64,000 bases of DNA from Candidatus Campbellbacteria bacterium. GTDB taxonomy: Bacteria > Patescibacteriota > Minisyncoccia > Phycocordibacterales > EsbW-18. The DNA lies in the NCBI GenBank assembly GCA_016699465.1, contig CP064977.1, forward strand, positions 745,116-809,115. The letters run 5' to 3'. The notes below the pieces were generated by a model that worked only from the letters and a program-made list of their open reading frames with translations, did no database searches and was not told where the DNA came from. Both the position numbers and the translations under genes were made by a program. Below, one piece after another: positions 1,110 to 25,790 of this stretch; the first letter of the stretch is position 1; each line of letters opens with the position of its first letter.

Positions 1110-1118
1110 TGGGAGATA

Positions 1119-5357: not shown

Positions 5358-8207
5358 ATGGCAGTTACTAATAATCTTAAAACACAAGTTGATTTGCCTG
5401 TTTGGGAGTGGTGTCGTTTTGCCCCCACTAATACTGTGGCATTATCAGGCATGGCAACTGCGGACGACGGTTCGAGTCGTTTTATATACTATTTGACTAC
5501 ATCGACCTTTTATAGGTATGACACCTTTGCAGATACATGGCAACAACTCGCAACACCAAACACGGCGCCCGTAACGACACTTTCACTACGGTACACAGGT
5601 TTACGTGGGTATCACGGTCGAGTACTTAGTGCTACTGGAACTACAATTCAAATACCAGGTTTGCGCGGTCCGACACTTAATGGGGCGACGCTAAAAATAC
5701 TCACCGGTACTGGGGTTGGTCAACAGAGAGTGCTTACCTATACTGGTGAGACTATTCATGATGCGGGTGTTATCACTGGAACAACCACTTCAACACTTGC
5801 CGATTCAACAAAGAAATGGAAATTTAATCAGTGGTCAGGATACATAGTTGGTATTACTTTTGGTACAGACGTGACACAGTATAAAAAGATTTTGTACAAC
5901 GATGCTACAACTCTTTATATTGCTGATCCAAACCTTCAGCCACATGATCCTTGGAATAACCAAATTTTTGTGGCGGCAGCACCGTACGCATTACCTGTTA
6001 CGACGGCTGGGTCGCAGGCACATTTTCAAATTCTTTCTCATACATACTCCGTTCCTGCGTGGGATGTAACTCCAGACTATACATCATATTTCACCACGAC
6101 AACGGGGGGGATTTATTTACTTTCATCTGCTGCCGCAGCCCCATTTTTCACACTCCAGTACTATGATATTGCACATGATACATGGCAGACAAAGACGTGT
6201 AATCAAGGTCTGATTCAAGCAGCTCTTGGTACAGATTGTTCAGTTGAGCGATTGGCAAAGACAGGTTCAGCATTTTTGTCTTCAACAGCAACGGCAGGCG
6301 CCGCAAGAACGCTAACTGACGGCGTGCAAACACTAACTGTTGATAGGTATGCAAATTACCGTATTCTTATTACTGGTGGCACAGGAGTGGGACAACATAG
6401 GCGTATTGTGTGTAATACTGCGACAGTATTTACTGTACATAAGCCATGGGACACAACTCCAGATGCAACATCAACTTACGAGATTTGGGGTGACTATGAC
6501 AAAATGTTTTTAGCTGGAGGTGCGGCTGCTGCTCTGTACGCTTATTCACCTGAAAACGATTACTGGATGCAAGGTAACAACTTTGATGATGGTGTTGTCC
6601 GCAACATATCAGTCAAGATGAATGGGTGGGAAGGGCTAGGTGTTTCAACAGGTGTGCGCATTGCTGCCGGTGTTACTGCTGTGAATCCTGTCCCAACAGC
6701 TGGAGGTACGGGGTATGTCGTTGGGGATATTCTCACGTGTTCAGTGGGAGGTACTGGTGCAAGGGTGATAGTAACATCCACAACTTTTTCAGGTTCTACA
6801 GGTGTGGTGACTGGTATTGAATTGGTAGCTGCTGGAACTGCCACTGGTTTTACCACAGGCACTGGAAAGGCAACATCAGGTGGTACAGGTTCGGGGTGCA
6901 CAATTGAAATAACATCCGTAGGAGCAACGTGTTTAGTGACGACGGCCAGTGCGCACTGGTTTAAGACTGGTGATTCGGTGACATTTGCTGGTTGTTCAGA
7001 GGCCGCGTATAACGCTGCGCATACTATTATTGGAGTTGGCTCAACCACAGCATTTGATGTTGCAGTGACGGCTACAGCAAACATGGCGGCAAGTAACTCT
7101 CAGTCGACAACTGTTATTGTTGACGCATCGAAAAATTGGACAGCTGGTGAGCACGTAGGTAAGTTGGTTCATTTATCTGTCGCCGGCACCGCGCCAACAG
7201 CACAAATCAGGTGGATTACCGCCAACACAGCAACAACACTTACTGTGGCAACAATTGTTGCTGGTACGAACGGAACATCAAAATATGCAATCTATGACTC
7301 AAAAGTCTTTGGGACAGACAACCAGTTTAAACCAGCCAATCAACAAAACTGGGGTCATGCATCATCTGGTTCTCTCACCACACTTGTAGACTCTTCAAAA
7401 AGTTGGGTAACTAACTGTTGGGCAGGCTATAAGCTTCGTATAGAGTCGGGAACAGGTTTTGCTACAGGTATCATTTCAATAGTTTCTAATACGGCAACTA
7501 CGCTTACGTATGCCGCACAAGCTTTTACACCAGATGCAACAACACACTACGAGATAGCGGATACATGGGGTTTGATCACTGCAGGAGGTACCACCACTCC
7601 AGTTACGGAAACAACAACAAAGAACTGGACTACAAACATGTGGGCAGGTAAGAGGTTACGTATTACAGGAGGAACAGCACTAGGGCAGGAGGGTACTGTG
7701 ACTTCAAACACTGCTACTGCTCTTACTACCGCAGCTCTGACACTTACTGATACTACGTCCACATATGCAATACTAGGAGTTCCTGCGCGTGGAGCCGGTA
7801 TGCAATTGTTGTGGGTGTGGAACAATACCGATACAGCGACAAAGGGCAAGTATATGTTTTTACCACGAGGAGGAGGTTCGAACACTGCGGATATTTATGA
7901 CATTACAACAACCCGTTGGATATATGGATATTTTTTCTCACCACAACAAGAAACACTTACCACAGGTTCAATGTATGCGTATGATGGACATAATACAATT
8001 TATTTTACAAAAGACGCGACCGGAAAAGTGTTTGCCTTTAACTTCACAACGAATTCAATAACAATGGTAGGACAAATTCCATATGGACACTCAACAGCCA
8101 TTATTGGAAACAGATTAGAAATAATTGAAACGGCAGACGGATTAAATTATTTGTACATGATGCGGCACACTGGTGCGGAAATGTGGCGAATGCTCCTCTT
8201 CTTTTAA
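5358..8207 (+). CDS. Large (949 aa) Thr/Gly-rich repeat protein of unknown function
   Basis: aagga RBS 2-6 nt upstream of the ATG at 5358. Recurrent module [KR]L.I..GTG.GQ....(V/I)..NTAT.LT occurs at least 5 times. No signal peptide. Confidence 0.6.
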   Translation: MAVTNNLKTQVDLPVWEWCRFAPTNTVALSGMATADDGSSRFIYYLTTSTFYRYDTFADTWQQLATPNTAPVTTLSLRYTGLRGYHGRVLSATGTTIQIPGLRGPTLNGATLKILTGTGVGQQRVLTYTGETIHDAGVITGTTTSTLADSTKKWKFNQWSGYIVGITFGTDVTQYKKILYNDATTLYIADPNLQPHDPWNNQIFVAAAPYALPVTTAGSQAHFQILSHTYSVPAWDVTPDYTSYFTTTTGGIYLLSSAAAAPFFTLQYYDIAHDTWQTKTCNQGLIQAALGTDCSVERLAKTGSAFLSSTATAGAARTLTDGVQTLTVDRYANYRILITGGTGVGQHRRIVCNTATVFTVHKPWDTTPDATSTYEIWGDYDKMFLAGGAAAALYAYSPENDYWMQGNNFDDGVVRNISVKMNGWEGLGVSTGVRIAAGVTAVNPVPTAGGTGYVVGDILTCSVGGTGARVIVTSTTFSGSTGVVTGIELVAAGTATGFTTGTGKATSGGTGSGCTIEITSVGATCLVTTASAHWFKTGDSVTFAGCSEAAYNAAHTIIGVGSTTAFDVAVTATANMAASNSQSTTVIVDASKNWTAGEHVGKLVHLSVAGTAPTAQIRWITANTATTLTVATIVAGTNGTSKYAIYDSKVFGTDNQFKPANQQNWGHASSGSLTTLVDSSKSWVTNCWAGYKLRIESGTGFATGIISIVSNTATTLTYAAQAFTPDATTHYEIADTWGLITAGGTTTPVTETTTKNWTTNMWAGKRLRITGGTALGQEGTVTSNTATALTTAALTLTDTTSTYAILGVPARGAGMQLLWVWNNTDTATKGKYMFLPRGGGSNTADIYDITTTRWIYGYFFSPQQETLTTGSMYAYDGHNTIYFTKDATGKVFAFNFTTNSITMVGQIPYGHSTAIIGNRLEIIETADGLNYLYMMRHTGAEMWRMLLFF

Positions 8208-8210
8208 AGT

Positions 8211-9212
8211 ATGAACATAGACTACCTTATACAATTACTTACCAACCGTCAGAATGGACTTCTTCTCGCAAAAGATCAGGCATTTCAGTCTGGTGATTTG
8301 GAAAGAATTAACAGTGTTGATGCGGAAATTTTAGATGTGCAAAATACACTCTCAAAATTAAAGCTCTTGGCAAGTATTGAACAAGCCGCTGCTGCCACAG
8401 CATTTTCTGAAGCAGAAGTAGTGAAGAGTGGTATTGAAGCTGCCTTTAATCCGACTGTCGTTAGTGATGCAACACGCGTATTGCTTGAGTATGATATTGC
8501 ACCCTATGCAACTGATCCTGAACATGAGATGAAAATTCAGAGTATTTTGGAAAAAATGGGACCAATGAGTTCTCCCGACCAGATAGATTTGTATATACAA
8601 AGTGCTGTACCTGGGAGTCCTGTTACGGGAGCCATGGTTTTTGCGGCAGCGGCTCGATATGCTGTCGACGCTCGATTAATGTTGGCTCTTATGGAGAATG
8701 ATTCCATGTATGGGACACTTGGTGTTGGTGCACGCACATTTAATCCTGGAAATGTAGGAAATACAGGCACTAAAGAGCGCATGTATCCATCTTGGGAAGA
8801 AGGAGTCGGTGCGGTTGCATTATGGTTGAGTAGGCACCGAAGAGAGTCGGAGGTTCCTGTTGTATTACCGGGGGTTTTGGATGAAACGTTATCTGAAGAG
8901 GCACAAGGTGAAGAGGCAACAACGACAGATTCAACAGTTGAATCTGATGCGACGACAACACCACCGTTTGTAGAAACAGCAACGGGCACAACAACGCAAG
9001 ATGTAGAGGCAACTTCAACTCCAGCAGATACCGGAACAGTATATGGTACGAGCACACAAGCAACATCGACTCCGCCGGGGACTGTAGAGGCAAGTACGAC
9101 ACCTGAGGTGCTATCGCCTAGTGTTTTGGAAGGAACCACTACAGCAACGAGCACGCCATCTGAACAAACTGCTCGTGTTATACGGCAAAAACAGAAGCGC
9201 AAAATGGCATAA
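8211..9212 (+). CDS. Hypothetical protein with a Thr/Ser-rich C-terminus
   Basis: 333-aa ORF 3 nt after the previous stop. Conserved-looking core ...GARTFNPGNVGNTG...SWEEGVGAVALWL. C-terminal low-complexity T/S/E-rich region. Confidence 0.5.
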   Translation: MNIDYLIQLLTNRQNGLLLAKDQAFQSGDLERINSVDAEILDVQNTLSKLKLLASIEQAAAATAFSEAEVVKSGIEAAFNPTVVSDATRVLLEYDIAPYATDPEHEMKIQSILEKMGPMSSPDQIDLYIQSAVPGSPVTGAMVFAAAARYAVDARLMLALMENDSMYGTLGVGARTFNPGNVGNTGTKERMYPSWEEGVGAVALWLSRHRRESEVPVVLPGVLDETLSEEAQGEEATTTDSTVESDATTTPPFVETATGTTTQDVEATSTPADTGTVYGTSTQATSTPPGTVEASTTPEVLSPSVLEGTTTATSTPSEQTARVIRQKQKRKMA

Positions 9213-9231: not shown

Positions 9232-9972
9232 TTGATTTCTGTGAATTCCTTTGAAGAAACTCTTTCGCAATATGGCACGTATTTTGAGGAATTACGCCAA
9301 GCAATTCTTACGGTAACGAAGGTTTTTGTTGGTGTATTTGCTCTTGGTTTTTTTGCAACATCTCCTGCAGTACGTTTTATATTGGAACATGTTCGTATAA
9401 GCGGTGTAACCGTTGTGACTACGTCGCCATTTCAACTCGTTGAACTTGCTATGAGTGTGGGTTTTTTTTGTGCGTGTGTCGTCGTCGTACCACTTTTTGT
9501 TTTTCGTGTGTATTCATTTCTTAAGCCAGGTTTATTTCCTGCAGAACGTACTTTTTTTGCATGGTCGGCTCCTTTCGGTCTCGGGCTTTTTATCACAGGT
9601 TTTACGTACGGGTGCGTCATGTTGTATTACGCAATAAAAATAATTGCTCAAGTGAATATAGGGCTTGGTGTTTCAAATTATTGGGATATTAGTTCGTTTA
9701 TTTCACAAATGGTACTCACCTCGGCACTTCTCGGTCTCCTTTTTCTTTTTCCGTTAGTTATTACCTTTCTTGTTCGTTTGGGTATTGTAGATGCAGCTTT
9801 TCTAAAATCAAAAAGGAAGCACGCTATCGCTGGGATATTCATTCTCGTCTCTTTGCTTCCGCCGACGGATGGGGTATCATTAATCTTGATGGCAGTGCCG
9901 ATGATAATAATTTTTGAACTCACTGTTGTGTTCAATAAGGGGAAGAATCGCGGTCGTCTTTTAACAGTGTAA
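9232..9972 (+). CDS. tatC: Sec-independent protein translocase TatC
   Basis: Six predicted TM segments. TatC signature FLKPGLFPAER. Overall TatC-like hydropathy. Apparent non-ATG (TTG) start at 9232; an in-frame GTG at 9241 is an alternative. Confidence 0.8.
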   Translation: MISVNSFEETLSQYGTYFEELRQAILTVTKVFVGVFALGFFATSPAVRFILEHVRISGVTVVTTSPFQLVELAMSVGFFCACVVVVPLFVFRVYSFLKPGLFPAERTFFAWSAPFGLGLFITGFTYGCVMLYYAIKIIAQVNIGLGVSNYWDISSFISQMVLTSALLGLLFLFPLVITFLVRLGIVDAAFLKSKRKHAIAGIFILVSLLPPTDGVSLILMAVPMIIIFELTVVFNKGKNRGRLLTV

Positions 9973-10173: not shown

Positions 10174-10338
10174 ATGTTTGGATTAGGAACAAAAGAAATC
10201 ATAATTATTGCGGTGGTACTTGTTTTACTTTTTGGTGCGAAGAAAATACCCGAACTCGCAAAGAATATTGTTGATGCATTCAAAAATTTAACAGGAGCAT
10301 TCAAGGATGTGGATGATGGTGGTGAAAAGAAAAAATAG
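10174..10338 (+). CDS. tatA: Twin-arginine translocase TatA/E family protein (copy 2)
   Basis: 54-aa MFGLGTKEIIIIAVVLVLLFGAKKIPEL... Paralog of copy 1, diverged mostly at third codon positions. Confidence 0.8.
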   Translation: MFGLGTKEIIIIAVVLVLLFGAKKIPELAKNIVDAFKNLTGAFKDVDDGGEKKK

Positions 10339-10422: not shown

Positions 10423-13400
10423 ATGAATCATTTTAAAAATACAAAATATCTTATTTTTAAAATAGTAGTTCTTTCCCTGTCTATATGTGCGTATACTGGT
10501 GCTGCATATGCATCAGAAATGTACACGTCAGGTGATACTGTTGTTGTTGGAGAATTTATTTACAACGATGACTATACTCCAACAACTGACGATTGTACGG
10601 TTACTATTTACCCACCAACGGGAAGTGTTACTCCGTTGGTAGAGGCAACAACAACAGATAATTCTACGGGGTGGCATTATTACGAATTCACTGCTCCGGC
10701 AACAGAGGGGAAATACCCTGCTTTTATAACATGCGGAACGCTTGCAGGGGGTGATTTACTAAAGGTTGATAAGACGTTTGTTGTTTCTAATACTGTAGTT
10801 ACGGCGTCATCTTCTCTTGGTGCAGCAATCGGTGCAAGTACTGCAAGTACAGCTAATTCTATTGCCACCGCATCCACCTCACTCGCTGCAGCAATTAGCG
10901 CAGGCACCGCAAGTACCGCCGATACTATTGCCACTGCATCCTCATCACTTGGTGCAGTTATTAATGCAAACACAAATACCCAGACAGCGGGTGTTATTTC
11001 TTCTGTAAATGCAAACACCGATATTCAAATAGCTACAGCATCTTCGTCAATCGTTTCGCAAGTTCTTTCGTCTCTGGCTCTTATTCCGGCAAATGTGTGG
11101 TCGTATTCAACGAGAACATTGTCTTCAATGGGCACACTTGTTGCTGATGTGTGGAGTTATGGTACGCGACGACTTACGGACGCTGTTCTTGATAGTGGGA
11201 CTCTTGCTTTGTTATCTGATATGGAAACCGCCTCCTCATCACTCGGCAGTGCCGTGGCTGCAGGAACCGCAGGTGTGAACGCACACACAGACAGTCAACT
11301 TGCCTCAACAATCACCACCATCAACGCACACACGGATGCAACTGTCCTCACCGCAACCACCTCACTCCTTGCCACACTCCCAACCGCAGTCTGGTCAAGT
11401 GCAACACGATCACTCACCACCTTCGGAACACTCGCAGCTGATGTGTGGACGAACGGTACACGCACCCTCACGTCAGGAGTCCTCACCGCAGGTGACGTCT
11501 GGTCATACGCAACACGTCGTCTCTCTGATGGCACACTCGATGCCGGAGCACTCGCTACCGTCTCTGATGTGGGTACCGCATCCACCTCACTCGCCGCAGC
11601 AATTAGCGCAGGCACTGCAAGTACCGCCGGCACCATCTCGACCGCTTCCTCATCACTCGGCAGTGCCGTGGCTGCAGGAACCGCAGGTGTGAACGCACAC
11701 ACAGACAGTCAACTTGCCTCAACAATCACCACCATCAACGCACACACGGATGCAACTGTCCTCACCGCAACCACCTCACTCCTTGCCACACTCCCAACCG
11801 CAGTCTGGTCAAGTGCAACACGATCACTCACCACCTTCGGAACACTCGCAGCTGATGTGTGGACGAACGGTACACGCACCCTCACGTCAGGAGTCCTCAC
11901 CGCAGGTGACGTCTGGTCATACGCAACACGTCGTCTCTCTGATGGCACACTCGATGCCGGAGCACTCGCTACCGTCTCTGATGTGGGTACCGCATCCACC
12001 TCACTCGCCGCAGCAATTAGCGCAGGCACTGCAAGTACCGCCGGCACCATCTCGACCGCTTCCTCATCACTCGGCAGTGCCGTGGCTGCAGGAACCGCAG
12101 GTGTGAACGCACACACAGACAGTCAACTTGCCTCAACAATCACCACCATCAACGCACACACGGATGCAACTGTCCTCACCGCAACCACCTCACTCCTTGC
12201 CACACTCCCAACCGCAGTCTGGTCAAGTGCAACACGATCACTCACCACCTTCGGAACACTCGCAGCTGATGTGTGGACGAACGGTACACGCACCCTCACG
12301 TCAGGAGTCCTCACCGCAGGTGACGTCTGGTCATACGCAACACGTCGTCTCTCTGATGGCACACTCGATGCCGGAGCACTCGCTACCGTCTCTGATGTGG
12401 GTACCGCATCCACCTCACTCGCCGCAGCAATTAGCGCAGGCACTGCAAGTACCGCCGGCACCATCTCGACCGCTTCCTCATCACTCGGCAGTGCCGTGGC
12501 TGCAGGAACCGCAGGTGTGAACGCACACACAGACAGTCAACTTGCCTCAACAATCACCACCATCAACGCACACACGGATGCAACTGTCCTCACCGCAACC
12601 ACCTCACTCCTTGCCACACTCCCAACAGCAGTCTGGTCAAGTGCAACACGATCACTCACCACCTTCGGAACACTCGCAGCTGATGTGTGGACGAACGGTA
12701 CACGCACCCTCACGTCAGGAGTCCTCACCGCAGGTGACGTCTGGTCATACGCAACACGTCGTCTCTCTGATGGCACACTCGATGCCGGAGCACTCGCTAC
12801 CGTCTCTGATGTGGGTACCGCATCCACCTCACTCGCCGCAGCAATTAGCGCAGGCACTGCAAGTACCGCCGGCACCATCTCGACCGCTTCCTCATCACTC
12901 GGCAGTGCCGTGGCTGCAGGAACCGCAGGTGTGAACGCACACACAGACAGTCAACTTGCCTCAACAATCACCACCATCAACGCACACACGGATGCAACTG
13001 TCCTCACCGCAACCACCTCACTCCTTGCCACACTCCCAACCGCAGTCTGGTCAAGTGCAACACGATCACTCACCACCTTCGGAACACTCGCAGCTGATGT
13101 GTGGACGAACGGTACACGCACCCTCACGTCAGGAGTCCTCACCGCAGGTGACGTCTGGTCATACGCAACACGTCGTCTCTCTGATGGCACACTCGATGCC
13201 GGAGCACTCGCTACCGTCTCTGATGTGGGTACCGCATCCACCTCACTCGCCGCAGCAATTAGCGCAGGCACTGCAAGTACCGCCGGCACCATCTCGACCG
13301 CTTCCTCATCACTCGGCAGTGCCGTGGCTGCAGGAACCGCAGGTGTGAACGCACACACAGACAGTCAACTTGCCTCAACAATCACCACCATCAACGCACA

Positions 13401-14457
13401 CACGGATGCAACTGTCCTCACCGCAACCACCTCACTCCTTGCCACACTCCCAACCGCAGTCTGGTCAAGTGCAACACGATCACTCACCACCTTCGGAACA
13501 CTCGCAGCTGATGTGTGGAATGCAGCAACACGAACTCTTACATCACTCACACTCTCGTCTCAGTCTCCGTGGACTGTGACAACATCGGATTTCGGGTCGG
13601 TTGTTGCTGGAGAAAATTACCTTGCTACGGTCACAACTATCTACAACGGAACACTTACAGACTCACAGAATGTACCAACGGTTACTATTTATGATCCAAG
13701 TAGAAATGTGGTTGTTAACAGCGCTGTGATGACTCGAGTAAGTGTTGGAACATATACGTATGTATACACCACTGCAGGAAATGCTGCAGCTGGAACATGG
13801 GAAAGTGTATTTTCAGCGACTGTAGAGACAGGAAAGACTTTACCAGGTAATGACTATTGGACAGTGGTGACGACACCTGCTCAGGTGGTGATAAATAGTA
13901 TGTCAGATGTAAGTACGCCGCTTGTTGGTGCAAATGTCACCATTACAAACGAAGGTTTGAGTGGAAATGAATACCAGTACGAGTGGTGTGTGGTTTCTTC
14001 TGTGGGTAATCCTTGTGGTGGTGGTGATGATATCTTTCACGCAACAGCTGCAAAATACATTAATGCAGGAGAAGATTTTAATACGACACTAACTGCAACT
14101 GTTCCGGCGGCAGGTAATTACTATTTCAAAGTGATTGTATACTTTGGTACTGAAAGTTCTGGTGCGTCACGTTCGTTTACCGCGACTTCCTCGGGCAACA
14201 CTGGTGGAGGAGGTGGCGGAGGAGGTGGAGGTGGGGGCGGAAGTGATACCACAACGTCGGTAACTCCTCTAGGTTCTTGTAAGCGTAGAGCGGACTTTAA
14301 CTGTGATACGAAGGTCAATTCGATAGATTTTTCGATACTCCTATATTTCTGGAAATCGATGTATCCATTTAAAAACCAAAATGTTGATATAAATAAAGAT
14401 ACAAGGGTAGATTCAGTTGATTTTTCAATTTTATTATACGAATGGGATAAAAAATAA
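10423..14457 (+). CDS. Giant secreted repeat protein with a C-terminal type-I-like dockerin (two DxNxDxxVNxxD segments)
   Basis: 1344 aa. Signal peptide (IVVLSLSICAYTGAAYA). N- and C-terminal Ig-like flanks (TVTIYPPTG / TVTIYDPS). A central array of 138-aa repeats with VW..TR.L sub-motifs. Gly13 linker. C-terminal DFNCDTKVNSIDFSILLYFW ... DINKDTRVDSVDFSILLYEW. Confidence 0.75.
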   Translation: MNHFKNTKYLIFKIVVLSLSICAYTGAAYASEMYTSGDTVVVGEFIYNDDYTPTTDDCTVTIYPPTGSVTPLVEATTTDNSTGWHYYEFTAPATEGKYPAFITCGTLAGGDLLKVDKTFVVSNTVVTASSSLGAAIGASTASTANSIATASTSLAAAISAGTASTADTIATASSSLGAVINANTNTQTAGVISSVNANTDIQIATASSSIVSQVLSSLALIPANVWSYSTRTLSSMGTLVADVWSYGTRRLTDAVLDSGTLALLSDMETASSSLGSAVAAGTAGVNAHTDSQLASTITTINAHTDATVLTATTSLLATLPTAVWSSATRSLTTFGTLAADVWTNGTRTLTSGVLTAGDVWSYATRRLSDGTLDAGALATVSDVGTASTSLAAAISAGTASTAGTISTASSSLGSAVAAGTAGVNAHTDSQLASTITTINAHTDATVLTATTSLLATLPTAVWSSATRSLTTFGTLAADVWTNGTRTLTSGVLTAGDVWSYATRRLSDGTLDAGALATVSDVGTASTSLAAAISAGTASTAGTISTASSSLGSAVAAGTAGVNAHTDSQLASTITTINAHTDATVLTATTSLLATLPTAVWSSATRSLTTFGTLAADVWTNGTRTLTSGVLTAGDVWSYATRRLSDGTLDAGALATVSDVGTASTSLAAAISAGTASTAGTISTASSSLGSAVAAGTAGVNAHTDSQLASTITTINAHTDATVLTATTSLLATLPTAVWSSATRSLTTFGTLAADVWTNGTRTLTSGVLTAGDVWSYATRRLSDGTLDAGALATVSDVGTASTSLAAAISAGTASTAGTISTASSSLGSAVAAGTAGVNAHTDSQLASTITTINAHTDATVLTATTSLLATLPTAVWSSATRSLTTFGTLAADVWTNGTRTLTSGVLTAGDVWSYATRRLSDGTLDAGALATVSDVGTASTSLAAAISAGTASTAGTISTASSSLGSAVAAGTAGVNAHTDSQLASTITTINAHTDATVLTATTSLLATLPTAVWSSATRSLTTFGTLAADVWNAATRTLTSLTLSSQSPWTVTTSDFGSVVAGENYLATVTTIYNGTLTDSQNVPTVTIYDPSRNVVVNSAVMTRVSVGTYTYVYTTAGNAAAGTWESVFSATVETGKTLPGNDYWTVVTTPAQVVINSMSDVSTPLVGANVTITNEGLSGNEYQYEWCVVSSVGNPCGGGDDIFHATAAKYINAGEDFNTTLTATVPAAGNYYFKVIVYFGTESSGASRSFTATSSGNTGGGGGGGGGGGGGSDTTTSVTPLGSCKRRADFNCDTKVNSIDFSILLYFWKSMYPFKNQNVDINKDTRVDSVDFSILLYEWDKK
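11230..13520. repeat. Tandem 414-bp coding repeat: 5 full copies plus a ~220-bp partial, with a divergent copy upstream at ~10800-11230
   Basis: Antisense and sense artefact ORFs recur with an exact 414-nt period. The copies are virtually identical; one C/A difference is visible near 12618. Confidence 0.85.
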
Positions 14458-14472
14458 TTACGTCACAAGAAT

Positions 14473-15381
14473 ATGAATATGAAAAAAAATATAATGTTTT
14501 GCTTTGTGCTCGCCGCACTTTTTCTCGTTATTCCAACAGGTGTCTCAGCGGCAACGGTATATGTTGAGGCATCTCAGGATACGGTTTCTGTTGGTGACAC
14601 GATTATCATTACTGTAAAAATCAATGCGGACGGCGGTGTTCTCAATACCGTTGATGGAATGATCTCACTACAACCTGCTACAGGAGTACTTGCGATACGT
14701 GAGTTTAGTCTTGCACAATCATCGTTTGGTTTGTGGCCAAGGACACCATCTCTTTCAAAAGATGCGCAGCACATCTCTTTTGTGGGGGGTGTACCGGGAG
14801 GATTCAGTATCGAAGGAGCAACGGTCTTTAAGATTATTGCAGAGGCTACAAAAGAAGGTGTGGTTACGGTTATTCCAGAAAATATCCAAACATTTGCCAG
14901 TGATGGAAAGGGGACTCTCGTTCCTTCATCTGTACGTGGTTTGACACTTGAAGTGGTACCAAAAAAGGATACAGGTGTATCTGATGAGTGGGGGACGCTT
15001 CTTTCTCGGGATACTACACCACCTGAAGATTTCATTGTTGTATTGGGACAGGACCAATCTCTTTTTGAAGGGAAAAAATTTGCTTTTTTTAGTGCCCTAG
15101 ATAATCAAACAGGTATTGATCACTATGAAGTGTCAGAAAACGGGGCACCGGCAGTACGAAGTGGAAGCACATACGTATTACAAAGTCAAAATGATGATGT
15201 ACGACTTTCTGTTGTTGCATATGACAAATCTGGAAATACAAAGACAGCGCTCTATCCAATAGAAACAAGAAATGGTTTTCCATGGATTTCTGTTGTTATT
15301 GGTATCATCGTGTTGTTTATTCTTCGAGAAATATACACCATGTGGAGACGCGCTAGAAAAAATGTTTCAAACGTTGTTTAG
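14473..15381 (+). CDS. Membrane-anchored cohesin-like domain protein (small scaffoldin/anchor)
   Basis: Signal peptide. ~140-aa region ATVYVEASQDTVSVGDTIIITVKINADGGVLNTVDGMISLQPATGVLAIREFSL...ATVFKIIAEATKEGVV fits the cohesin beta-sandwich sequence pattern. C-terminal TM (ISVVIGIIVLFIL) plus RRARK tail. Confidence 0.65.
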   Translation: MNMKKNIMFCFVLAALFLVIPTGVSAATVYVEASQDTVSVGDTIIITVKINADGGVLNTVDGMISLQPATGVLAIREFSLAQSSFGLWPRTPSLSKDAQHISFVGGVPGGFSIEGATVFKIIAEATKEGVVTVIPENIQTFASDGKGTLVPSSVRGLTLEVVPKKDTGVSDEWGTLLSRDTTPPEDFIVVLGQDQSLFEGKKFAFFSALDNQTGIDHYEVSENGAPAVRSGSTYVLQSQNDDVRLSVVAYDKSGNTKTALYPIETRNGFPWISVVIGIIVLFILREIYTMWRRARKNVSNVV

Positions 15382-17086
15382 AAAAAGGAATGTGTGGAGA
15401 GTGGTGCCGATACTGTTCTTTCTCGGTTTCTTTTCCTGTGCAATAAGAGTAGAAGCGGCATCATTGAATCTTATTCCTTCAGCAACAAAAGTTTCCGTGG
15501 GGAATATCGTTTCTGTTGGGGTCTATGTCGACACCGGAGGTAGGGCGATTAATAACGCCGAAGCTACCATCGAATTTCCTACAGACGTACTGGAGGTTAT
15601 CTCTGTAAGTAAAAAGCCATCCATTTTCACTCTCTGGGTTGAAGAACCAAGTTTCTCAAATTACACAGGAACAGTGAGTTTTAATGGTGGTGTAGCTAAT
15701 CCTGGTTTTACAGGTGAAAACGGATCAATTGCATCAATTACATTTCGTGCAAAGAAGGCTGGAAGTGCGTCGCTCCTTTTCTCGTCTTCTGCAGTACGAC
15801 AAAATGATGGTTTAGGTACAGATATTTTATCTGTAAAAAATGGTTCTAGTATCACGGTAGCGGGAATAGGAGAATCGACACCTCCGTCTGCGCAGGAGTT
15901 TGGCGGTGCTACTACACCTGCGCCCGTTATTACATCAGAAACACATCCTGATCAGGATGTCTGGTACGCATTAGATACGGCGACATTCAATTGGAAAATT
16001 CAAAAAGGGGTCACTTCGATTCAAACTCTTTTTGATACAAACGCACGAGCACTCCCGACAATTACCTATGACAGCTCGGTTACCCAAAAGACACTCAGTT
16101 CAATTTCTGATGGGGTTTTCTATTTTCACTTGAGGTATCTGAACACAAGTGGGTGGGGGCCAATAGCACACTATAAAGTCCGTGTAGATACTACAGCTCC
16201 ACGACCGTTCACGCCGACCGTTCGCCTTGAAGGTGATGTTGTGTACATGACACTGAATGCGGTTGATACCGTGTCAGGTATTCAAAAGTATGATATTCGT
16301 TTTGATAACGCTGAAGGTTTAAGTGTCGAAAAAACAGTACTGAAAAGTGCACTTGTGAACAACGAGTACGCGCTCCCAGCGCTTAATCAGGGAAATTATA
16401 CGGCGGTTGTGACGGCGTATGACAAGGCAGGTAATCACACGGAGGCGACTGTTTCTTTTGTGAGCCCCGTGGTGTCGGTGCCGAAAATTTCTCTGAGTAC
16501 ACGAGAGATCAATACGGGCGAATCTGTTGTGGTTACTGGAACATCAGAGTATATCGGTAAACAGGTTGAAGTGACCCTTGAATCAAACGGAAAAACAATT
16601 GCGACATCAACACAAACGATTGCTTCTGACGGCTCATTCTCCGTGACAACTCAAAAAATAAAAACAGCAGGGGTTGTAACTATTTTTGCCGAGAATATTC
16701 TATCGTCTACGGTACGAAGTCAGCCGTCGACAAAACTCTTCCTTACAGTTAATGAAACGATGGTCATTAAGGTGGCAACTCTCATCTTCTGGTTAATTGT
16801 TATTGCACTATTGATCAGTGTGCTTCTCATTGTTGCATACGTTGGGTGGCATCGATTCTTAGGCATACGAAAGAAAATGGATCAAGAATTGCAACGTACG
16901 GCAAAGAGTACTCACAAAGCAATGAACTCCTTGAAAGATGAACTCGATAAGCAACTAAAGGATTTAGAGCGAACAAAAGTTGATCGGGCCTTGAATGAGA
17001 AAGAGGAGCGTATCTTTAAGGATTTGCAGGATTCAGTTGATTCTATTGACGAATTTATTGAAAAAGACTTACAAAAAATGCTGTAG
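15362..17086 (+). CDS. Membrane-anchored cohesin-like domain protein with Ig-like domains and a cytoplasmic coiled-coil tail
   Basis: The tabulated ORF begins at 15272, but the in-frame ATG at 15362 gives a signal peptide (MFQTLFRKRNVWRVVPILFFLGFFSCAIRVEAAS). Cohesin-like segment ...ATIEFPTDVLEVISV...GSIASITFRAKKAGSASLLFS. TM at ~aa 505-530 followed by a charged coiled coil. Confidence 0.65.
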   Translation: MFQTLFRKRNVWRVVPILFFLGFFSCAIRVEAASLNLIPSATKVSVGNIVSVGVYVDTGGRAINNAEATIEFPTDVLEVISVSKKPSIFTLWVEEPSFSNYTGTVSFNGGVANPGFTGENGSIASITFRAKKAGSASLLFSSSAVRQNDGLGTDILSVKNGSSITVAGIGESTPPSAQEFGGATTPAPVITSETHPDQDVWYALDTATFNWKIQKGVTSIQTLFDTNARALPTITYDSSVTQKTLSSISDGVFYFHLRYLNTSGWGPIAHYKVRVDTTAPRPFTPTVRLEGDVVYMTLNAVDTVSGIQKYDIRFDNAEGLSVEKTVLKSALVNNEYALPALNQGNYTAVVTAYDKAGNHTEATVSFVSPVVSVPKISLSTREINTGESVVVTGTSEYIGKQVEVTLESNGKTIATSTQTIASDGSFSVTTQKIKTAGVVTIFAENILSSTVRSQPSTKLFLTVNETMVIKVATLIFWLIVIALLISVLLIVAYVGWHRFLGIRKKMDQELQRTAKSTHKAMNSLKDELDKQLKDLERTKVDRALNEKEERIFKDLQDSVDSIDEFIEKDLQKML

Positions 17087-17450: not shown

Positions 17451-17479
17451 TTGTTTGAGAGTGAATAAATTCGTATAAT
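17451..17479 (+). promoter_or_regulatory. Candidate sigma70 promoter (TTGTTT, 17 nt, TATAAT), possibly giving a leaderless transcript starting at ATG 17487
   Basis: -35 at 17451-56 and a perfect -10 at 17474-79. The -10 overlaps the tabulated ATG at 17478. A second in-frame ATG lies at 17487, ~8 nt after the -10. Confidence 0.35.
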
Positions 17480-18752
17480 GAGTTATATGGCCAAATCGAC
17501 GAAATTTATAGATATTTCTCCCCACAGAAGTATTATGACGAAAATTAGTCAGACGGGATATTCCATTCAGGAAGCTCTGGCTGAACTTATTGATAATTCA
17601 ATTGATGCACGAGTGCCGGAAAAGAAGTTGGTTGTTAAGGTAGACATAACAAATGATGAAATAATAATAAGTGATAACGGAAAGGGAATGACCGAGGAGC
17701 AAGCGGCAAAGGCTATTAGGCTCGGTTTTTCTGAGAAAAAGAGTCAGCTCGGTGAATTTGGTTTGGGGCTTAAAACATCCACATCGTTTTTAGGCAAGGG
17801 TTTTATGTTAATAACCACACCAGAGGACTCAAGTGAGGAATATATATTGGAGTACGACGAAGATCACTGGCTTGAGCATGGTGATTGGAATAAGTACCCC
17901 TTTATTATAAATAACGAAATTGATCCAGAAAAAAGCGGTACCACAGTAATAATAAAAAGATTGAAGGTAAACTTCTCAGAAAAACTTCTTAATGGTATTA
18001 AAGACGAGTTTGGTTTGAGGTTTGGACCCTTTATAAAAAATGAAGAATTGGAACTAATCTTCAATCAAGAAGTTTGTCAACCATTTGTTCCTGTGATACT
18101 GGATAATAAAAAAAATGAATTCACTTTTGAATTTGAAGGTGGTACGGCCAAGGGATGGTGGGGATACCAGTTGGTTGGGTTAAACAAAAGTTACTACGGA
18201 TTCCATACGTATCGTAGGGGTAGGTTGGTCACGACGTATGACAAAATGGGCCTAACTCCAAACCAGGATATAAAACAAATAATAGGAGATTTACATATAG
18301 AAGGAATACCCATAACACATGACAAAAAAGGTTGGCTCAAGTCCTCGGCTCAATTCAAAGATCTCGAGAGTAAGATGAGAGAATATTTTAAACCTTTTGA
18401 GAAAAAGCCAAAAAGAATATTGAGTGGTTATCCGGTCTCGGCAGGTAGGGTTAGAGGGACTGTTAAACTTATTAAAACTACCGCTCAACATATAGATATC
18501 CAGAAGGTCCTGGAGAACGTAAAACGAGGTGACATAATTGTCACAGAGATGACGCGTCCACAGTATTTGTTGGCCATCAGGCGTGCCGCGGGTATTATCA
18601 CCGATCTTGGTGGAAATCTTTGTCATGCGGCGATATTGTCAAGGGAGTTCAATATTCCATGTGTGGTTGGTACTCAGAATGCCACGTCACTTTTAGTGGA
18701 GGGTAAGACGGTTATATTAGATGGTAATGAGGGCTATATTTATGAAGATTGA
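17478..18752 (+). CDS. Fusion protein: N-terminal GHKL/Bergerat-fold ATPase domain plus C-terminal PEP-utilising-enzyme mobile (swivel His) domain
   Basis: N-terminus ALAELIDNSIDA...ISDNGKGM...GEFGLGLK (HATPase_c-type N, G1 and G2 boxes). C-terminus GTVKLI...GDIIVTEMTRPQYLLAIRRAAGIITDLGGNLCHAAILSREFNIPCVVGT matches the PEP-utilizers swivel domain with the conserved His. Confidence 0.7.
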   Translation: MSYMAKSTKFIDISPHRSIMTKISQTGYSIQEALAELIDNSIDARVPEKKLVVKVDITNDEIIISDNGKGMTEEQAAKAIRLGFSEKKSQLGEFGLGLKTSTSFLGKGFMLITTPEDSSEEYILEYDEDHWLEHGDWNKYPFIINNEIDPEKSGTTVIIKRLKVNFSEKLLNGIKDEFGLRFGPFIKNEELELIFNQEVCQPFVPVILDNKKNEFTFEFEGGTAKGWWGYQLVGLNKSYYGFHTYRRGRLVTTYDKMGLTPNQDIKQIIGDLHIEGIPITHDKKGWLKSSAQFKDLESKMREYFKPFEKKPKRILSGYPVSAGRVRGTVKLIKTTAQHIDIQKVLENVKRGDIIVTEMTRPQYLLAIRRAAGIITDLGGNLCHAAILSREFNIPCVVGTQNATSLLVEGKTVILDGNEGYIYED

Positions 18753-19905
18753 TGAACATATTTTAAAATTTCCAAAATCTTTGCCAAACGATGAACAGCA
18801 GTTCATGACCTATTATCCGTATAAGTTCCCAAAGGTTATAGAATATTATGAACAAAAATCTAAAGAGCTTTGTGATAAGCCCGAAGAATACGCTCAATTT
18901 GTTCAAAAAGAATTTTTAGAACTAAGAGACGCCGTAAACAAAGTAAACGAGTTATTCCAAAATGGTGACAAAACAGACCTGAAATTTTTGATTGAGATAG
19001 ATCAAAAGTTTAATAAAATATTTTGTTTTAAATTTTGGATTATAAATTATGTATTTGCGGATGGCCCGATTCATGAGTTTTATGTTGATCAGCTTAGGGC
19101 ATTTGCTCGTAAGATTGTCGATGTAACCGATGATATAGAAGAATACGAACAGAAGATAATACGGTTTCAAAGGGATTTGCTTCAAACAGATTATGCTGAT
19201 ATTTATCTAGCACAAGCATTACACGGAGTACAACTAATTAAATACCTTGATGGGGACGCACAATCCAAAGAAATACTAGATAAGGTTATTCCACTCATAG
19301 ATAAACACGACGAACATGACGCGGAGCAAATTCGCGAAATGTGGAAGCCTGTTGTAGAAAGAATACTAGATGATTCAGACGAGTATTTTAAACCTCTAAA
19401 ACAGGTCAATCTCGATTCCTGGGATATTCTGGGCCAGCCACCTCTTCTGGTTCCGGTAAACCAGGTACGTATGCGTAAGAATGAATTTCCCTTGTATAGC
19501 TTTTTGAATCATGTGGTGGAATTTCGAAACCAAAACGAAGTTTTGGAAGAGCGGTTCAAAAATATGAAGGCTACCATAGAAGAGATATTTGTAGAAGCCA
19601 AGAGTCGCTTGAGCGAAGAAGGATATTCTGATTTCAAGCTTTCCTACGAGATGGCAAAAAATTTCTCTAAATCAAAGGATTTGATGGGGAACGTTGATCC
19701 AATATTGATACCGGTTTGGGAAAGGGATGTTCATGCTAGAATTTATGAAATTTTGTCTAAAGAACACACCGTTCGCTACCCCTCAGTTAATCATGCTTCA
19801 GTTTTCGGTAGTTTTATTTGGTATCTACCAGACGATCTAAAATCTAAAGTTATGTCGGTTGATGATACTTTTTTTGATGCAGATGAATTATCTACTCATA
19901 AATAA
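18721..19905 (+). CDS. Hypothetical protein (394 aa)
   Basis: Long ORF overlapping the upstream stop. The start could be ATG 18721 or 18742. No recognisable motif. Confidence 0.5.
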   Translation: MVMRAIFMKIDEHILKFPKSLPNDEQQFMTYYPYKFPKVIEYYEQKSKELCDKPEEYAQFVQKEFLELRDAVNKVNELFQNGDKTDLKFLIEIDQKFNKIFCFKFWIINYVFADGPIHEFYVDQLRAFARKIVDVTDDIEEYEQKIIRFQRDLLQTDYADIYLAQALHGVQLIKYLDGDAQSKEILDKVIPLIDKHDEHDAEQIREMWKPVVERILDDSDEYFKPLKQVNLDSWDILGQPPLLVPVNQVRMRKNEFPLYSFLNHVVEFRNQNEVLEERFKNMKATIEEIFVEAKSRLSEEGYSDFKLSYEMAKNFSKSKDLMGNVDPILIPVWERDVHARIYEILSKEHTVRYPSVNHASVFGSFIWYLPDDLKSKVMSVDDTFFDADELSTHK

Positions 19906-19910
19906 AAAAT

Positions 19911-20750
19911 ATGAGTGAAAAATTACCCCCAATGTCAGACGGGCGAATGGAGATACATATCCAACGTCATGATGTTCATAAAATTGGTCATTTAACCCCT
20001 GAGGGTCGAGAACATGCGAGAACTATCGCCAGAGAAAAGGTTGGAAAATATTTAGATAAGGAAAAAGATACAAATTTTTTAGTCATTGCTTCAAACCAAG
20101 TGTTTGATGATAGAGAACCCGATTTTGGGGGGCAACGAGCCGTCGAGACGGCCGATGAAATAGTTTCTGCTATACGCGATGAATTGAAGGCGAGAGGCTT
20201 GCCTGATGACCATCTATTCGGAGGGGATACGCTTCCTATTGCCATGAGTCCTGATTTGCAAGAAGCAGGGATTTTTTCGGGTGATTTTATGAAATACCTT
20301 AAGGAAAAATATGACCCAGAAAATTTAAAGGGCTTACAGTATATTTGGAATATATATTATCAAGACGTTGAATCGGAGATAAGAAAAAAAATGAGTGCAG
20401 AGGGGCCAAGGGATCTCGCAAGAAGGATGGACTATGTTTTTAAAGTTGCGGAAATGGTTGGTGCTTCATTCCATAAAACTGATGACAGGAAGAGTCAGCC
20501 TTTAGTTGTTTGGATGGTTGGACACGGTGGGGGGCTCGATGCTTTCTTGCATCATTATGCCGGTGTTCCCGTCGACGATGTTGGCTTTTCACCGAGTGAT
20601 GGTTTTACGATAAGGGTGAATTCAGACGGCGTTGTCGTGGCTGATGTAAAAGGTAAAGAATATCCACTCCATCAAGATGATGAATTAAGTCTCCCTAAAC
20701 ACCCAGTGATAGCTGATGAAACTATACGAGTATCTAAGTGGAATGCTTAA
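19911..20750 (+). CDS. Histidine phosphatase superfamily (PGAM-like) protein
   Basis: N-terminal RHD..H...LTPEGREHA resembles the RHG...LT..G..QA catalytic core. C-terminal VVWMVGHGGGL matches the second catalytic His motif. Confidence 0.5.
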   Translation: MSEKLPPMSDGRMEIHIQRHDVHKIGHLTPEGREHARTIAREKVGKYLDKEKDTNFLVIASNQVFDDREPDFGGQRAVETADEIVSAIRDELKARGLPDDHLFGGDTLPIAMSPDLQEAGIFSGDFMKYLKEKYDPENLKGLQYIWNIYYQDVESEIRKKMSAEGPRDLARRMDYVFKVAEMVGASFHKTDDRKSQPLVVWMVGHGGGLDAFLHHYAGVPVDDVGFSPSDGFTIRVNSDGVVVADVKGKEYPLHQDDELSLPKHPVIADETIRVSKWNA

Positions 20751-20799
20751 TGCTGCCAAAATAAAAATTGGATATTGGAAAGGGTAAAATATAAGTTTT

Positions 20800-21747
20800 G
20801 TGTCTTTTACTTTAAATTTTGAGGAACTTAATAAAAACGACAGTGCGATTGCCGGAGGTAAGGGAGCATCTCTTGGTGAGATGACGCTGGTGGGTATTCC
20901 GGTTCCACCAGGGTTTGTTGTACTTTCCACTACATTTGATGAATTTACAAAGGAGGCAGATTTGATACAAGAAATTGATGCCGCCATTGATGGTGTCGAC
21001 CACGAGGAGATGCATATTGTGGAAAATGCCTCAGAAAAGATACAGGCACTTATCAAAAATGCAACAATACCAGAAAGAATAGCAGATGAAATAAAGAATC
21101 AATTTAAAAAATTAGACACTGAATATGTGGCAGTGCGTTCATCGGCCACGGCAGAAGACGGAACAGACAATGCTTGGGCAGGACAACTAGACTCATATCT
21201 CAACACCAAAGAAGAAAATCTTTTGGAAAAAGTTCAGGAATGTTGGGCGTCTCTTTTTACTCCACGAGCCATATTCTATAGATTTGAAAAGGGTTTGCAC
21301 ACAACTAAAATCTCAGTAGCGGTAGTAATTCAGAAAATGGTTAATTCTGAAATCTCAGGCATCGCCTTCTCTGTGCATCCAGTAACAGAAGATAGAAATC
21401 AAATGATTATTGAAGCAGGATTCGGCTTAGGTGAGGCAATAGTATCAGGTTCAATTACGCCTGATTCATATGTGGTAGAGAAAGAACCAAGAAGTATTAT
21501 AGATATTAATGTTTCCACTCAACTGAGTGGTTTGTACCGTGTTGTGGCTGGAGGTAGTGAATGGATTGATATACCAGAACCCAAGGCATCATCTCAAGTA
21601 CTAAACGAGGCTCAGATTCTAGAATTGTCTGATCTCATCATGAGAATTGAGAATCATTATGGTTTTCCATGTGATATTGAGTGGGCTTATGAAAATGGAA
21701 AATTTTATATCGTACAAAGTAGGCCAATTACTACTTTGAAAAAATAA
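20800..21747 (+). CDS. Stand-alone PEP synthase / pyruvate phosphate dikinase N-terminal ATP-grasp (PPDK_N) domain protein
   Basis: GGKGASLGEM...VAVRSSATAEDGTDNAWAGQLDSYLN...ISVAVVIQKMVNSEISGIAFSVHP...IEAGFGLGEAIVSG is the classic PPDK_N/rifampin-phosphotransferase ATP-binding domain. GTG start at 20800; no in-frame ATG nearby. Confidence 0.75.
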   Translation: MSFTLNFEELNKNDSAIAGGKGASLGEMTLVGIPVPPGFVVLSTTFDEFTKEADLIQEIDAAIDGVDHEEMHIVENASEKIQALIKNATIPERIADEIKNQFKKLDTEYVAVRSSATAEDGTDNAWAGQLDSYLNTKEENLLEKVQECWASLFTPRAIFYRFEKGLHTTKISVAVVIQKMVNSEISGIAFSVHPVTEDRNQMIIEAGFGLGEAIVSGSITPDSYVVEKEPRSIIDINVSTQLSGLYRVVAGGSEWIDIPEPKASSQVLNEAQILELSDLIMRIENHYGFPCDIEWAYENGKFYIVQSRPITTLKK

Positions 21748-24461: not shown

Positions 24462-24534
24462 AAGACCCCCCGAAGGGAGCCTCTTACCGTAGATACATCG
24501 TATCAAGACCCCTTCGTCGAGTCAAGCAAAAATT

Positions 24535-25716
24535 ATGCAAACACAAGAACGAAGCGTGTCCCCGACCGTTGAAGAATCATTCTTCACAAAGATCGGGAAT
24601 ACGAAACCTTACTTCAAGGCGGCATTTGAAGGAGAGCCGGGAACCGGCAAAAGTTGGACTGCCGCATTAGTAGCGATTGGTCTTCACAAGAAGATCAACA
24701 GCAAGAAGCCGATTGTGCTTATCGATACCGAGAAAGCGTCGAAATTCTTGGTCCCGCTGTTCAAAGAACACGGAATCGAAGCGATGGTGCGCGAAACGCA
24801 TTCACTCGCTGACTTAGTCAAAGCAATGAAGCTCTGCTCGGATGGGTATGCCGACATCATGGTGATCGACAGCATTACTCACATCTGGATGGACTTCCAA
24901 GAGGCATACAAGCGAAAGCTGAATCGACAAGTGTTCCAGATTCAAGACTGGATGTCGATCAAAAGCGAGTGGAATAAATACTTCTCAATCCCACTCGTGC
25001 AATCGCCCCTGCACATTCTTGCAACCGGCCGCGTGTCGGATCGCATGGAGCAGGAAGTGGATGAGGATGGCCGAAAAGAGTTCACCAAGACTGGAGTGAA
25101 GATGCAAGCGGAAAAGAACGCTGCATACGAATTCGATGTCTTGGTCCTAATGGAACGCCATGAGCTCATCCAACGCAAGAAGCGTGAAGTCTGGCGACAG
25201 TCTGTGGTCCTCAAAGGCCGAGGCAATCTCCTCGATGGTGCGGTGTTCAAAAATCCGACCTACGAAGATTTTGCTCCTGCGGTTGAAGCGATCATTAAAG
25301 ACCCGATAGCTGCGAGGTTCAGCCACGCCGAGCAGGATGCGGGAGAACTGATCAAAACCGAACAGGACAAGCGCCAGTGGATTCAGGAGAAGAAGCGATG
25401 GTTGGAAGAAATCGAGGGTTATCTCGTATCGATCTGGCCAAGTTCAAGTGCCGCGGAAAAGAAGAATAAAACCGATGCACTCGAGTACGCTTTCAACACT
25501 CGCAGCTGGTCCGCTATCGAGATGATGACGCCGGAGGTTCTAGAGGATGGCTATGCGCGAGTCAGGGAATTTGCCCAGCAAAAAATTGCTGAAGCAAAAG
25601 GAGAACTTGCTCCGGAGCTAACTCCAGGAGAGAAGTTTGACAAAGACCTGCGAGATTCAAAGGAATGCAATCCCAAAAAATCCGCAGCCGAGAAGTCTAA
25701 GAAAAGTGACAAGTAA
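24535..25716 (+). CDS. Phage AAA_24-family (Sak4-like) RecA-fold ATPase
   Basis: Walker A GEPGTGKSW. LIDTEKA... Walker B MVIDSI. 393 aa. Position in the replication/recombination module. Confidence 0.6.
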   Translation: MQTQERSVSPTVEESFFTKIGNTKPYFKAAFEGEPGTGKSWTAALVAIGLHKKINSKKPIVLIDTEKASKFLVPLFKEHGIEAMVRETHSLADLVKAMKLCSDGYADIMVIDSITHIWMDFQEAYKRKLNRQVFQIQDWMSIKSEWNKYFSIPLVQSPLHILATGRVSDRMEQEVDEDGRKEFTKTGVKMQAEKNAAYEFDVLVLMERHELIQRKKREVWRQSVVLKGRGNLLDGAVFKNPTYEDFAPAVEAIIKDPIAARFSHAEQDAGELIKTEQDKRQWIQEKKRWLEEIEGYLVSIWPSSSAAEKKNKTDALEYAFNTRSWSAIEMMTPEVLEDGYARVREFAQQKIAEAKGELAPELTPGEKFDKDLRDSKECNPKKSAAEKSKKSDK

Positions 25717-25730
25717 AAACAGTTAGCTTG

Positions 25731-25790
25731 GCCACTGACTCAGCCCTGATCAAGTGGCATGAGGGCTGAGATCGGGGGCTAAGCCCCGAT
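25731..25790 (+). other. Cluster of stable hairpins (no T-tract) between the Sak4-like and replication-initiator genes
   Basis: TCAGCCCT...AGGGCTGA (25740-25769, 8 bp) nested with GCCACT/AGTGGC. ATCGGGG-GCTAAG-CCCCGAT (25771-25790, 7 bp). Confidence 0.4.

Follow-up and report, generated by a model that had tools for sequence, protein, structure and literature searches.

Among the closest described counterparts of the locus examined here, a three-gene cassette for one dockerin-bearing secreted protein (P1) and two membrane-anchored cohesin-type proteins (P2 and P3) from Candidatus Campbellbacteria, are the anchors SdbA, OlpA and OlpC of Clostridium (Acetivibrio) thermocellum, cell-bound proteins whose single cohesin binds a secreted partner by its C-terminal dockerin, as we propose for P1 to P3. 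Candidatus Campbellbacteria belongs to the Patescibacteria, or Candidate Phyla Radiation (CPR), which are mostly uncultured, and whose envelope building and host contact are little understood. The window, i.e. the whole stretch of DNA analyzed, comprises 64 kb, or 8%, of an 811-kb genome in which P1, P2 and P3 are annotated merely as hypothetical proteins; an earlier note on this DNA had suspected a small-genome lineage, in agreement with its source. Structures of C. thermocellum anchoring scaffoldins (PDB 2bm3, 3ul4 and 4dh2) were among the Foldseek matches of the P2 model. The clostridial anchors, however, are attached to the wall via S-layer homology (SLH) repeats and have scaffoldins or plant-fibre enzymes as cargo, whereas P2 and P3 carry a transmembrane (TM) helix, constitute two paralogous anchors, and have a non-enzymatic repeat protein as their only apparent cargo.

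The best or near-best structural matches of P2 came from C. perfringens glycosidases and toxins (2w1n, 2jh2 and 2vo8) and from Archaeoglobus fulgidus (2xdh), whose connectors serve outside cellulose degradation, and 2w1n shares with P2 a two-domain layout of cohesin plus fibronectin type III (FN3). The C. perfringens modules differ in that they join secreted enzymes to each other, with neither a membrane anchor nor a conserved operon of one plug and two sockets. Non-cellulosomal cohesins and dockerins are well known, as indicated in the review by Peer et al. (2009) cited in PMC10066038. An adhesion role has been proposed for cohesins and dockerins of anaerobic methanotrophic (ANME) archaea and their sulfate-reducing bacterial (SRB) partners (PMC10553843), and for the giant dockerin proteins of Omnitrophota (PMC10066038; bioRxiv 10.1101/2023.11.21.568195), while in a cultivated Saccharibacterium the dockerin-domain protein SEML1_0315 is essential and has been proposed to act in glycan targeting (PMC10633639). 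Compared by description only, these three cases resemble the cassette in having cohesin or dockerin domains on large non-enzymatic surface proteins of partner-attached organisms; they were, however, reported as domain listings, which mention neither a fixed combination of one dockerin with two TM cohesins and its conservation nor a fusion of P2 with P3. In the metaproteome of CPR Shapirobacterales, cohesin and dockerin proteins were expressed and were read by the authors as a cellulosome (bioRxiv 10.1101/2021.08.21.457207). The order of parts in P3 is also reminiscent of the animal adhesion family TMEM132, which, as outlined in PMC6030884, has cohesin-like and Ig-like domains outside the cell, one TM helix and a tail in the cytoplasm; that family is eukaryotic and has no known dockerin partner, and the likeness is architectural only. 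Within the papers searched, we found no earlier description of the P1-P2-P3 cassette in Patescibacteria, and a conserved membrane-anchored cohesin-dockerin cassette appears to be undescribed in this group, non-cellulosomal pairs as such being already known.

We consider it probable that these genes form a surface-display cassette of Parcubacteria/Paceibacteria, in which a non-covalent, probably Ca-dependent tether holds a filament of variable length on a conserved two-cohesin membrane receptor. We infer the binding of the P1 dockerin to the P2 and P3 cohesins, and likewise its Ca dependence and stoichiometry, the shape of the filament and its purpose, from the evidence described below. The interpretation in the earlier note is thereby supported. 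This would also place the connector in a new setting, with a socket that is anchored directly in the membrane, exists in two copies and is fused in some genomes, with one structural cargo, and with conservation throughout a lineage instead of scattered occurrence.

Gene layout and the dockerin of P1

The features of the cassette are as follows, in order along the window.

10423..14457, + strand: P1, an ORF of 1344 aa coding for a secreted repeat protein with a dockerin at its C-terminus
10519..10797, + strand: MG2/Ig-like N-terminal domain of P1 (approximately aa 33-125; best Pfam MG2 stretch aa 33-95)
11227..13519, + strand: tandem repeat making up the stalk of P1 (Tandem Repeats Finder: 414 bp, or 138 aa; 5.5 copies; 99% identity)
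13570..14190, + strand: tandem beta-sandwich pair of P1, FN3/MG-like (approximately aa 1050-1256)
14209..14245, + strand: Gly-rich linker ahead of the dockerin
14284..14454, + strand: type-I-like dockerin of P1 (aa 1288-1344), with two 20-aa segments of Ca loop plus helix and an 11-aa linker between them
14473..15381, + strand: P2, an ORF of 302 aa coding for a membrane-anchored cohesin-type protein
Parts of P2, + strand: signal peptide; predicted cohesin, ~14551-14958; Ig/FN3-like domain, ~15025-15258; TM helix, ~15265-15348; short basic cytoplasmic tail
15362..17086, + strand: P3, 574 aa, a membrane-anchored cohesin-type protein (the ORF as listed opens at 15272)
Parts of P3, + strand: signal peptide; predicted cohesin, ~15458-15871; HPDQDxWY domain; Ig-like domains; TM helix, ~16769-16855; cytoplasmic tail of ~75 aa, 16856-17083

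The three ORFs of the earlier note are present (10423-14457, 14473-15381 and 15272-17086), although the ATG at 15362, and not 15272, is the most likely start of P3, giving 574 aa identical to the NCBI model (P0121). The genes are tightly packed, with 15 nt between P1 and P2 and an overlap of ~20 nt, or adjacency, between P2 and P3, and a scan for promoters and terminators yielded counts not above those in shuffled sequences. For comparison, we used a set of 33 related loci from Parcubacteria/Paceibacteria metagenome-assembled genomes (MAGs), totaling ~500 kb, in which several records bear generic organism labels that were left out of taxonomic claims. P1 and P2 share a reading frame in the window, but this was kept in only about half of the loci, and since it is unconserved, read-through from P1 into P2 is not indicated.

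P1 was thought to end in a type-I dockerin at 14293-14454, and this holds: Pfam Dockerin_1 (PF00404) matched aa 1290-1337 with 27.4 bits (E 3.8e-6), above its gathering cut-off of 22.9 bits, and both segments are present (DFNCDTKVNSIDFSILLYFW and DINKDTRVDSVDFSILLYEW), each with a 12-residue Ca loop (D1, N3, D5, N/D9, D12) followed by a helix. Among the homologues of P1, nearly all of 120 in the matches listed carry PF00404, and many carry PF01835. In 30 distinct orthologues, loop positions 1, 3, 5, 9 and 12 were D, N, D, N or D, and D in at least 27 for both segments, the linker was 11 aa long in every one, and the two halves were nearly identical at positions 10-18 (S-I/V-D-F-S-I-L-L-Y); the consensus of the dockerin that ends the ORF upstream of P2 in related loci is ADFNCDGKVNSIDFSILLYFWKSKPPFSNKYVDINKDGKIDSVDFSILLYEWGKK. 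An AlphaFold2 (AF2) monomer model of aa 901-1344, with a mean pLDDT (predicted local distance difference test) of 81.5, has two loop-helix units, as anticipated for a dockerin, with helices at model residues 400-408 and 431-439, a loop before each, and pLDDT of 90-96. Such internal symmetry would fit dual-mode binding to either socket, or the engagement of both at once, which is speculation at this point. The first Ca loop is also bracketed by a pair of cysteines in 26 of the 30 dockerins, one at most 10 residues upstream and the other at loop position 4 (14260-14310 in the window), which suggests a disulfide clasp where the dockerin begins.

The rest of P1 consists, from the N-terminus, of a Sec-type signal peptide, the MG2/Ig-like domain, a T/A/S-rich stalk, two beta-sandwiches and the Gly linker. 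By hydropathy, the hydrophobic N-terminus spans aa 9-29, and it has no twin-arginine (RR) motif. Pfam MG2 scored 27.2 bits on P1, under its cut-off, and the N-terminal domain has a mean identity of 54% across eight full-length orthologues; if the dockerin is the anchor, it would form the membrane-distal end. The 414-bp repeat described in the earlier note was recovered in the stalk, where five identical 138-aa units are rich in T, A, S, L and G, with T, A and S making up 55% of residues. AF2 places a helix of ~86 residues in each unit (pLDDT 82-91), after which a VW..TR.LT segment is modeled with low confidence. Full-length orthologues span 855-1923 aa, and some database orthologues, 450-530 aa in length, seemingly have no stalk at all. 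The beta-sandwich pair was modeled with pLDDT mostly >90 and found its best Foldseek matches in RbmA of V. cholerae, which has tandem FnIII domains, and in the MG domains of alpha-2-macroglobulin, C3 and TEP1, while the linker that follows is disordered in the model. No enzyme or catalytic fold was found in P1 by AF2 modeling of aa 901-1344 and Foldseek, and its globular parts, as modeled, resemble modules of matrix and adhesion proteins, RbmA and the MG domains among them. Matches of P1 to TyeA, ATP-synt_F and GC-dockerin were judged spurious, as they had zero qualifying stretches and lay inside low-complexity repeats. The repeat region at 12001-14000 also stands out by its GC content (0.55, versus a background of ~0.42) and negative GC skew, because of the Ala, Thr, Ser and Gly codon content of the stalk, which yields long spurious ORFs on both strands.

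Two membrane-anchored cohesin-type proteins

The segment of P2 proposed to be a cohesin (14548-14953) coincides with a domain at aa 27-162 for which the AF2 model (pLDDT 87.8 for P2) has nine main strands, followed by an Ig/FN3-like domain and a C-terminal helix. When the model was compared with the PDB by Foldseek, all of the top 50 matches were cohesins, the best being the cohesin+FN3 didomain of C. perfringens GH84C (2w1n, E 2.4e-11). TM-scores reached 0.83 for non-cellulosomal and type-I cohesins (0.83 for 2vo8, 0.76 for 2xdh) and were lower for type II. By its predicted fold, the N-terminal domain of P2 is a cohesin jelly-roll. The P2 family has more than 330 members of ~300 aa, and is very uniform, with 52-63% identity.

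P3 is, by profile comparison, a paralogue of P2: alignment of the two families with hhalign gave a probability of 99.7% and an E-value of 2.6e-27, and spanned the cohesin and Ig-like domains, so that a cohesin fold is predicted for P3 by way of P2. The second segment proposed to be a cohesin (15458-15884) corresponds to this domain, and Pfam Cohesin does recognize it in relatives, matching 10 of 36 P3 orthologues at residues ~36-150 with 26.4-36.8 bits, against a gathering cut-off of 24.1 bits; several P3 orthologues also bear the NCBI name “cohesin domain-containing protein”. Compared with P2, P3 has an inserted HPDQDxWY domain and additional Ig repeats, which matched the LapA-type adhesin 6xi3 (E 2.6e-11) in a search of PDB sequences with the family profile that returned Ig-repeat adhesins only.

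Hydropathy agrees with the C-terminal TM anchors expected for both proteins. P2 has a TM helix at aa 265-292 and, after it, the basic tail RRARKNVSNVV; the TM segment of P3, at aa 462-502, precedes a charged helical tail of ~75 aa, whose amphipathic periodicity is significant, unlike that of the P1 stalk, and fits an amphipathic or coiled-coil helix. No SLH repeats were found on P2 or P3 by Pfam and NCBIfam scans, and the anchor end consists of the TM helix and cytoplasmic tail rather than of an SLH or LPXTG attachment.

A proposed surface tether and its alternatives

The three genes are inherited together in a fixed order. In 33 of 33 related loci, the ORF directly upstream of P2 bears the same dockerin at its extreme C-terminus, and wherever the sequence continues past P2, P3 lies directly 3′ of it. 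With a dockerin hidden Markov model (HMM) built for this family, each locus gave exactly one match; the rest of the 64-kb window had none, and no enzyme was seen to bear a dockerin, either there or across the ~500 kb of related loci, consistent with the non-cellulolytic use of these modules that had been surmised from the sequence. Over the same 16 genomes, mean pairwise identity was 63% for the dockerin, 64% for the P2 cohesin, 58% for the P3 cohesin and 53% for TatC, the product of a neighboring gene described below. The cassette is thus inherited as a 1:1:1 unit, with the highest conservation in the putative interacting modules and free variation in the stalk, as one would expect if plug and sockets were cognate binding partners. 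Our reading of it as a non-covalent, probably Ca-dependent surface tether is based on this.

Further indications come from fusions. In other genomes, and among the best matches of the cohesin-domain profile, P2 and P3 occur as single ORFs of 600-900 aa (P0361, P0362, P0365 and ~25 others), which retain the P2 TM helix and, behind a short basic loop, the signal peptide of P3, implying a protein with three TM segments and two external cohesins; such fusions speak for joint, side-by-side action of the two cohesin proteins. A different combination was seen in P0411 (1211 aa), where two cohesin modules have a multi-TM sensor-like region between them.

According to the proposed mechanism, P1 would be exported by Sec as a long, non-enzymatic, filament-like protein, and its dockerin would fold around two Ca2+ ions and plug non-covalently into the cohesin of P2, P3 or both. 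As paralogous single-pass membrane proteins, P2 and P3 would hold their N-terminal cohesins at two heights, given one Ig-like spacer in P2 versus several in P3, and P3 would add a cytoplasmic amphipathic helix. The outcome would most likely be a cell-bound filament, making contact with another cell or surface, or contributing to an outer envelope layer; besides adhesion or host attachment, at least one more purpose, an envelope structure, is possible.

The most serious alternative, to which we assign a fairly low likelihood, is that the domains are identified correctly and the partners are not: the P1 dockerin would bind a cohesin encoded elsewhere, a host-surface component or a glycan, with gene linkage reflecting a shared pathway, while the P2 and P3 modules would bind another ligand or serve as purely structural beta-sandwiches. 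Pfam Cohesin (PF00963) never recognizes the P2 family, none of whose orthologues bears it, and the invariant P2 motifs FGLWPRTPS and GGVPGGF differ from classical cohesin signatures. The cohesin-type family is also huge, a whole-library search with the cohesin-domain profile having retrieved 8324 representative clusters of varied architectures at E<=1e-3, so that dockerin binding need not be a property of all members, and glycan targeting has been proposed for the essential dockerin protein of a Saccharibacterium (PMC10633639). On the other hand, the strict adjacency of the dockerin protein, P2 and, wherever downstream sequence exists, P3, the single dockerin per locus, and the equally high conservation of plug and sockets all speak for partnership within the cassette. 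To our knowledge, moreover, cohesin is the only well-documented ligand of dockerins.

Several observations weigh against the tether itself, beginning with the lack of direct sequence matches. While the HMM check proposed for the three proteins came out positive for Dockerin_1 in P1, neither P2 nor P3 of the window matched Pfam Cohesin at E<=1, and nothing in Pfam and NCBIfam scans of the window proteins placed them in Cohesin. The P2 family profile retrieved no cohesin from PDB sequences, and the combined profile of the P2 and P3 domains reached solved cohesins only below significance, at E ~0.5, with 7 of 13 matches being cohesins, so that the case for these two proteins is built on fold, paralogy and the HMM matches of orthologues. 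The helical and filament-like character of the P1 stalk is suggested by the helix in the monomer model and by composition, and a simple Fourier test found no significant heptad periodicity in that helix, for which reason a coiled coil in the stalk was dropped. Being 414 bp long, 99% identical and taken from a metagenome assembly, the repeat may have been assigned a wrong copy number. The N-terminal head of P1 shows conservation where a host-specific adhesin would usually vary, and this argues against a rapidly evolving host-specificity tip. Finally, with the window covering 64 of 811 kb, other dockerins and cohesins may lie in the remaining genome and be the true partners.

A bolder form of the surface tether, which we regard as doubtful, would make the Tat-adjacent cassette the main outer-surface appendage of Parcubacteria/Paceibacteria, a strongly constrained organelle present throughout the lineage. 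A filament of variable length would plug, by way of its internally symmetric dockerin, into a heteromeric pair of membrane cohesins, and the cytoplasmic coiled-coil tail of P3 would couple surface contact to the cell interior. If true, it would be the structure long sought in these uncultured episymbionts for host contact or for their envelope, and a cohesin-dockerin pair would for the first time form a transmembrane receptor complex instead of organizing enzymes. If the same logic holds for the essential dockerin protein of Saccharibacteria, it may be a general CPR strategy. The dockerin and the two cohesins are small, well-folded and highly conserved modules, which can be expressed and directly tested for binding, and which could also serve as handles, in the form of antibodies or tagged dockerin probes, for labeling, pulling down and imaging Parcubacteria cells and their surface filaments.

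The genes next to P1 point to another possibility, namely that P1, P2 or P3 is exported in a folded state by the twin-arginine translocation (Tat) pathway, or that P2 and P3 are accessory to export, with no display system at all. A complete Tat set lies directly upstream of P1, its TatA pair lying in the 450-bp gap between TatC and P1. The earlier note mentions neither this Tat set nor the paralogy and occasional fusion of P2 and P3.

9232..9972, + strand: TatC (Pfam TatC, E 1.3e-35), upstream of P1
9986..10138 and 10174..10338, + strand: TatA genes in tandem (50 and 54 aa, shorter than the default ORF list admits; Pfam TatA_B_E, 40.8 and 45.4 bits)

TatC was located directly 5′ of the P1 orthologue in all 16 loci with enough flanking sequence, and TatA genes were next to TatC where checked, in the window and in L001. 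Yet the twin-arginine motif was absent from the P1 N-termini inspected, from all 36 P2 N-termini and from 35 of 36 P3 N-termini, which instead have ordinary Sec-type signal peptides, and no ORF near the cassette has a credible RR signal. Dockerins, furthermore, fold with extracellular Ca2+. Tat export of the three proteins is unlikely, and we regard this explanation as a whole as very improbable.

Least probable, and scarcely tenable, is a minimal cellulosome or amylosome. P2 and P3 would then act as scaffoldins that anchor polysaccharide-degrading enzymes, tagged with dockerins and encoded at other loci, and P1 would be one cargo of several. In favor of this, cellulosomes use the same connector modules, the cohesin and dockerin proteins of CPR Shapirobacterales have been read in that way (bioRxiv 10.1101/2021.08.21.457207), and a weak glucosaminidase-like gene (8211-9212; 26.6 bits versus a cut-off of 30.2) lies two genes upstream. 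Against it, the product of that gene has neither a dockerin nor a signal peptide, no enzyme in the window or the related loci has a dockerin, each protein has a single cohesin and each locus a single dockerin, the sole cargo is non-enzymatic, and the three genes are kept together as an invariant 1:1:1 set. With no multi-cohesin scaffoldin, carbohydrate-binding module, SLH domain or dockerin-tagged enzyme in the window and the related loci, the cassette is not a cellulosome, so that the term “cellulosome-like” used in the earlier note applies to the connector modules and not to the system. Its statement that no carbohydrate-active enzyme is nearby stands for dockerin-bearing enzymes, and has to be qualified by the sub-threshold glucosaminidase-like match.

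Other genes of the window

The glucosaminidase-like protein (333 aa) has an S/T/P-rich tail and is preceded by a gene for a 949-aa protein with repeated G.G.GQ.R.I..NT.T.LT motifs and weak Kelch matches, also with no signal peptide; this pair (5358-9212) recurs upstream of TatC in three related loci (L003, L024 and L029). A phage origin of P1 or of these two proteins was considered and set aside, as a PHROGs search gave nothing usable, and the cassette is not visibly of phage derivation. Further upstream, at 411-3873, a sortase (73 bits in Pfam) stands ahead of a protein of 898 aa that carries three SpaA_2 prealbumin-like domains. This sortase and its SpaA-like substrate are a separate, covalent surface-anchoring system of the pilin/adhesin type within the same 17 kb.

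Downstream of the cassette, at 17478-21747, an ATPase of the GHKL/MORC type (HATPase_c_3 plus Morc6_S5) is fused to a PEP-utilizers mobile domain, and is followed by two unannotated proteins and a stand-alone PPDK_N protein, in an unusual split of phosphotransfer modules; this gene block is not kept beside the cassette in relatives. A prophage-like block extends over ~24500-34200, and possibly beyond, with an AAA_24 protein at 24535-25716 and a fusion of portal and Mu F proteins at 32007-34205, and AT skew is elevated over 24-44 kb. Finally, at 51517-53793, we found a 758-aa AAA_13 protein (368 bits), of a type known from abortive-infection and anticodon-nuclease-like systems.

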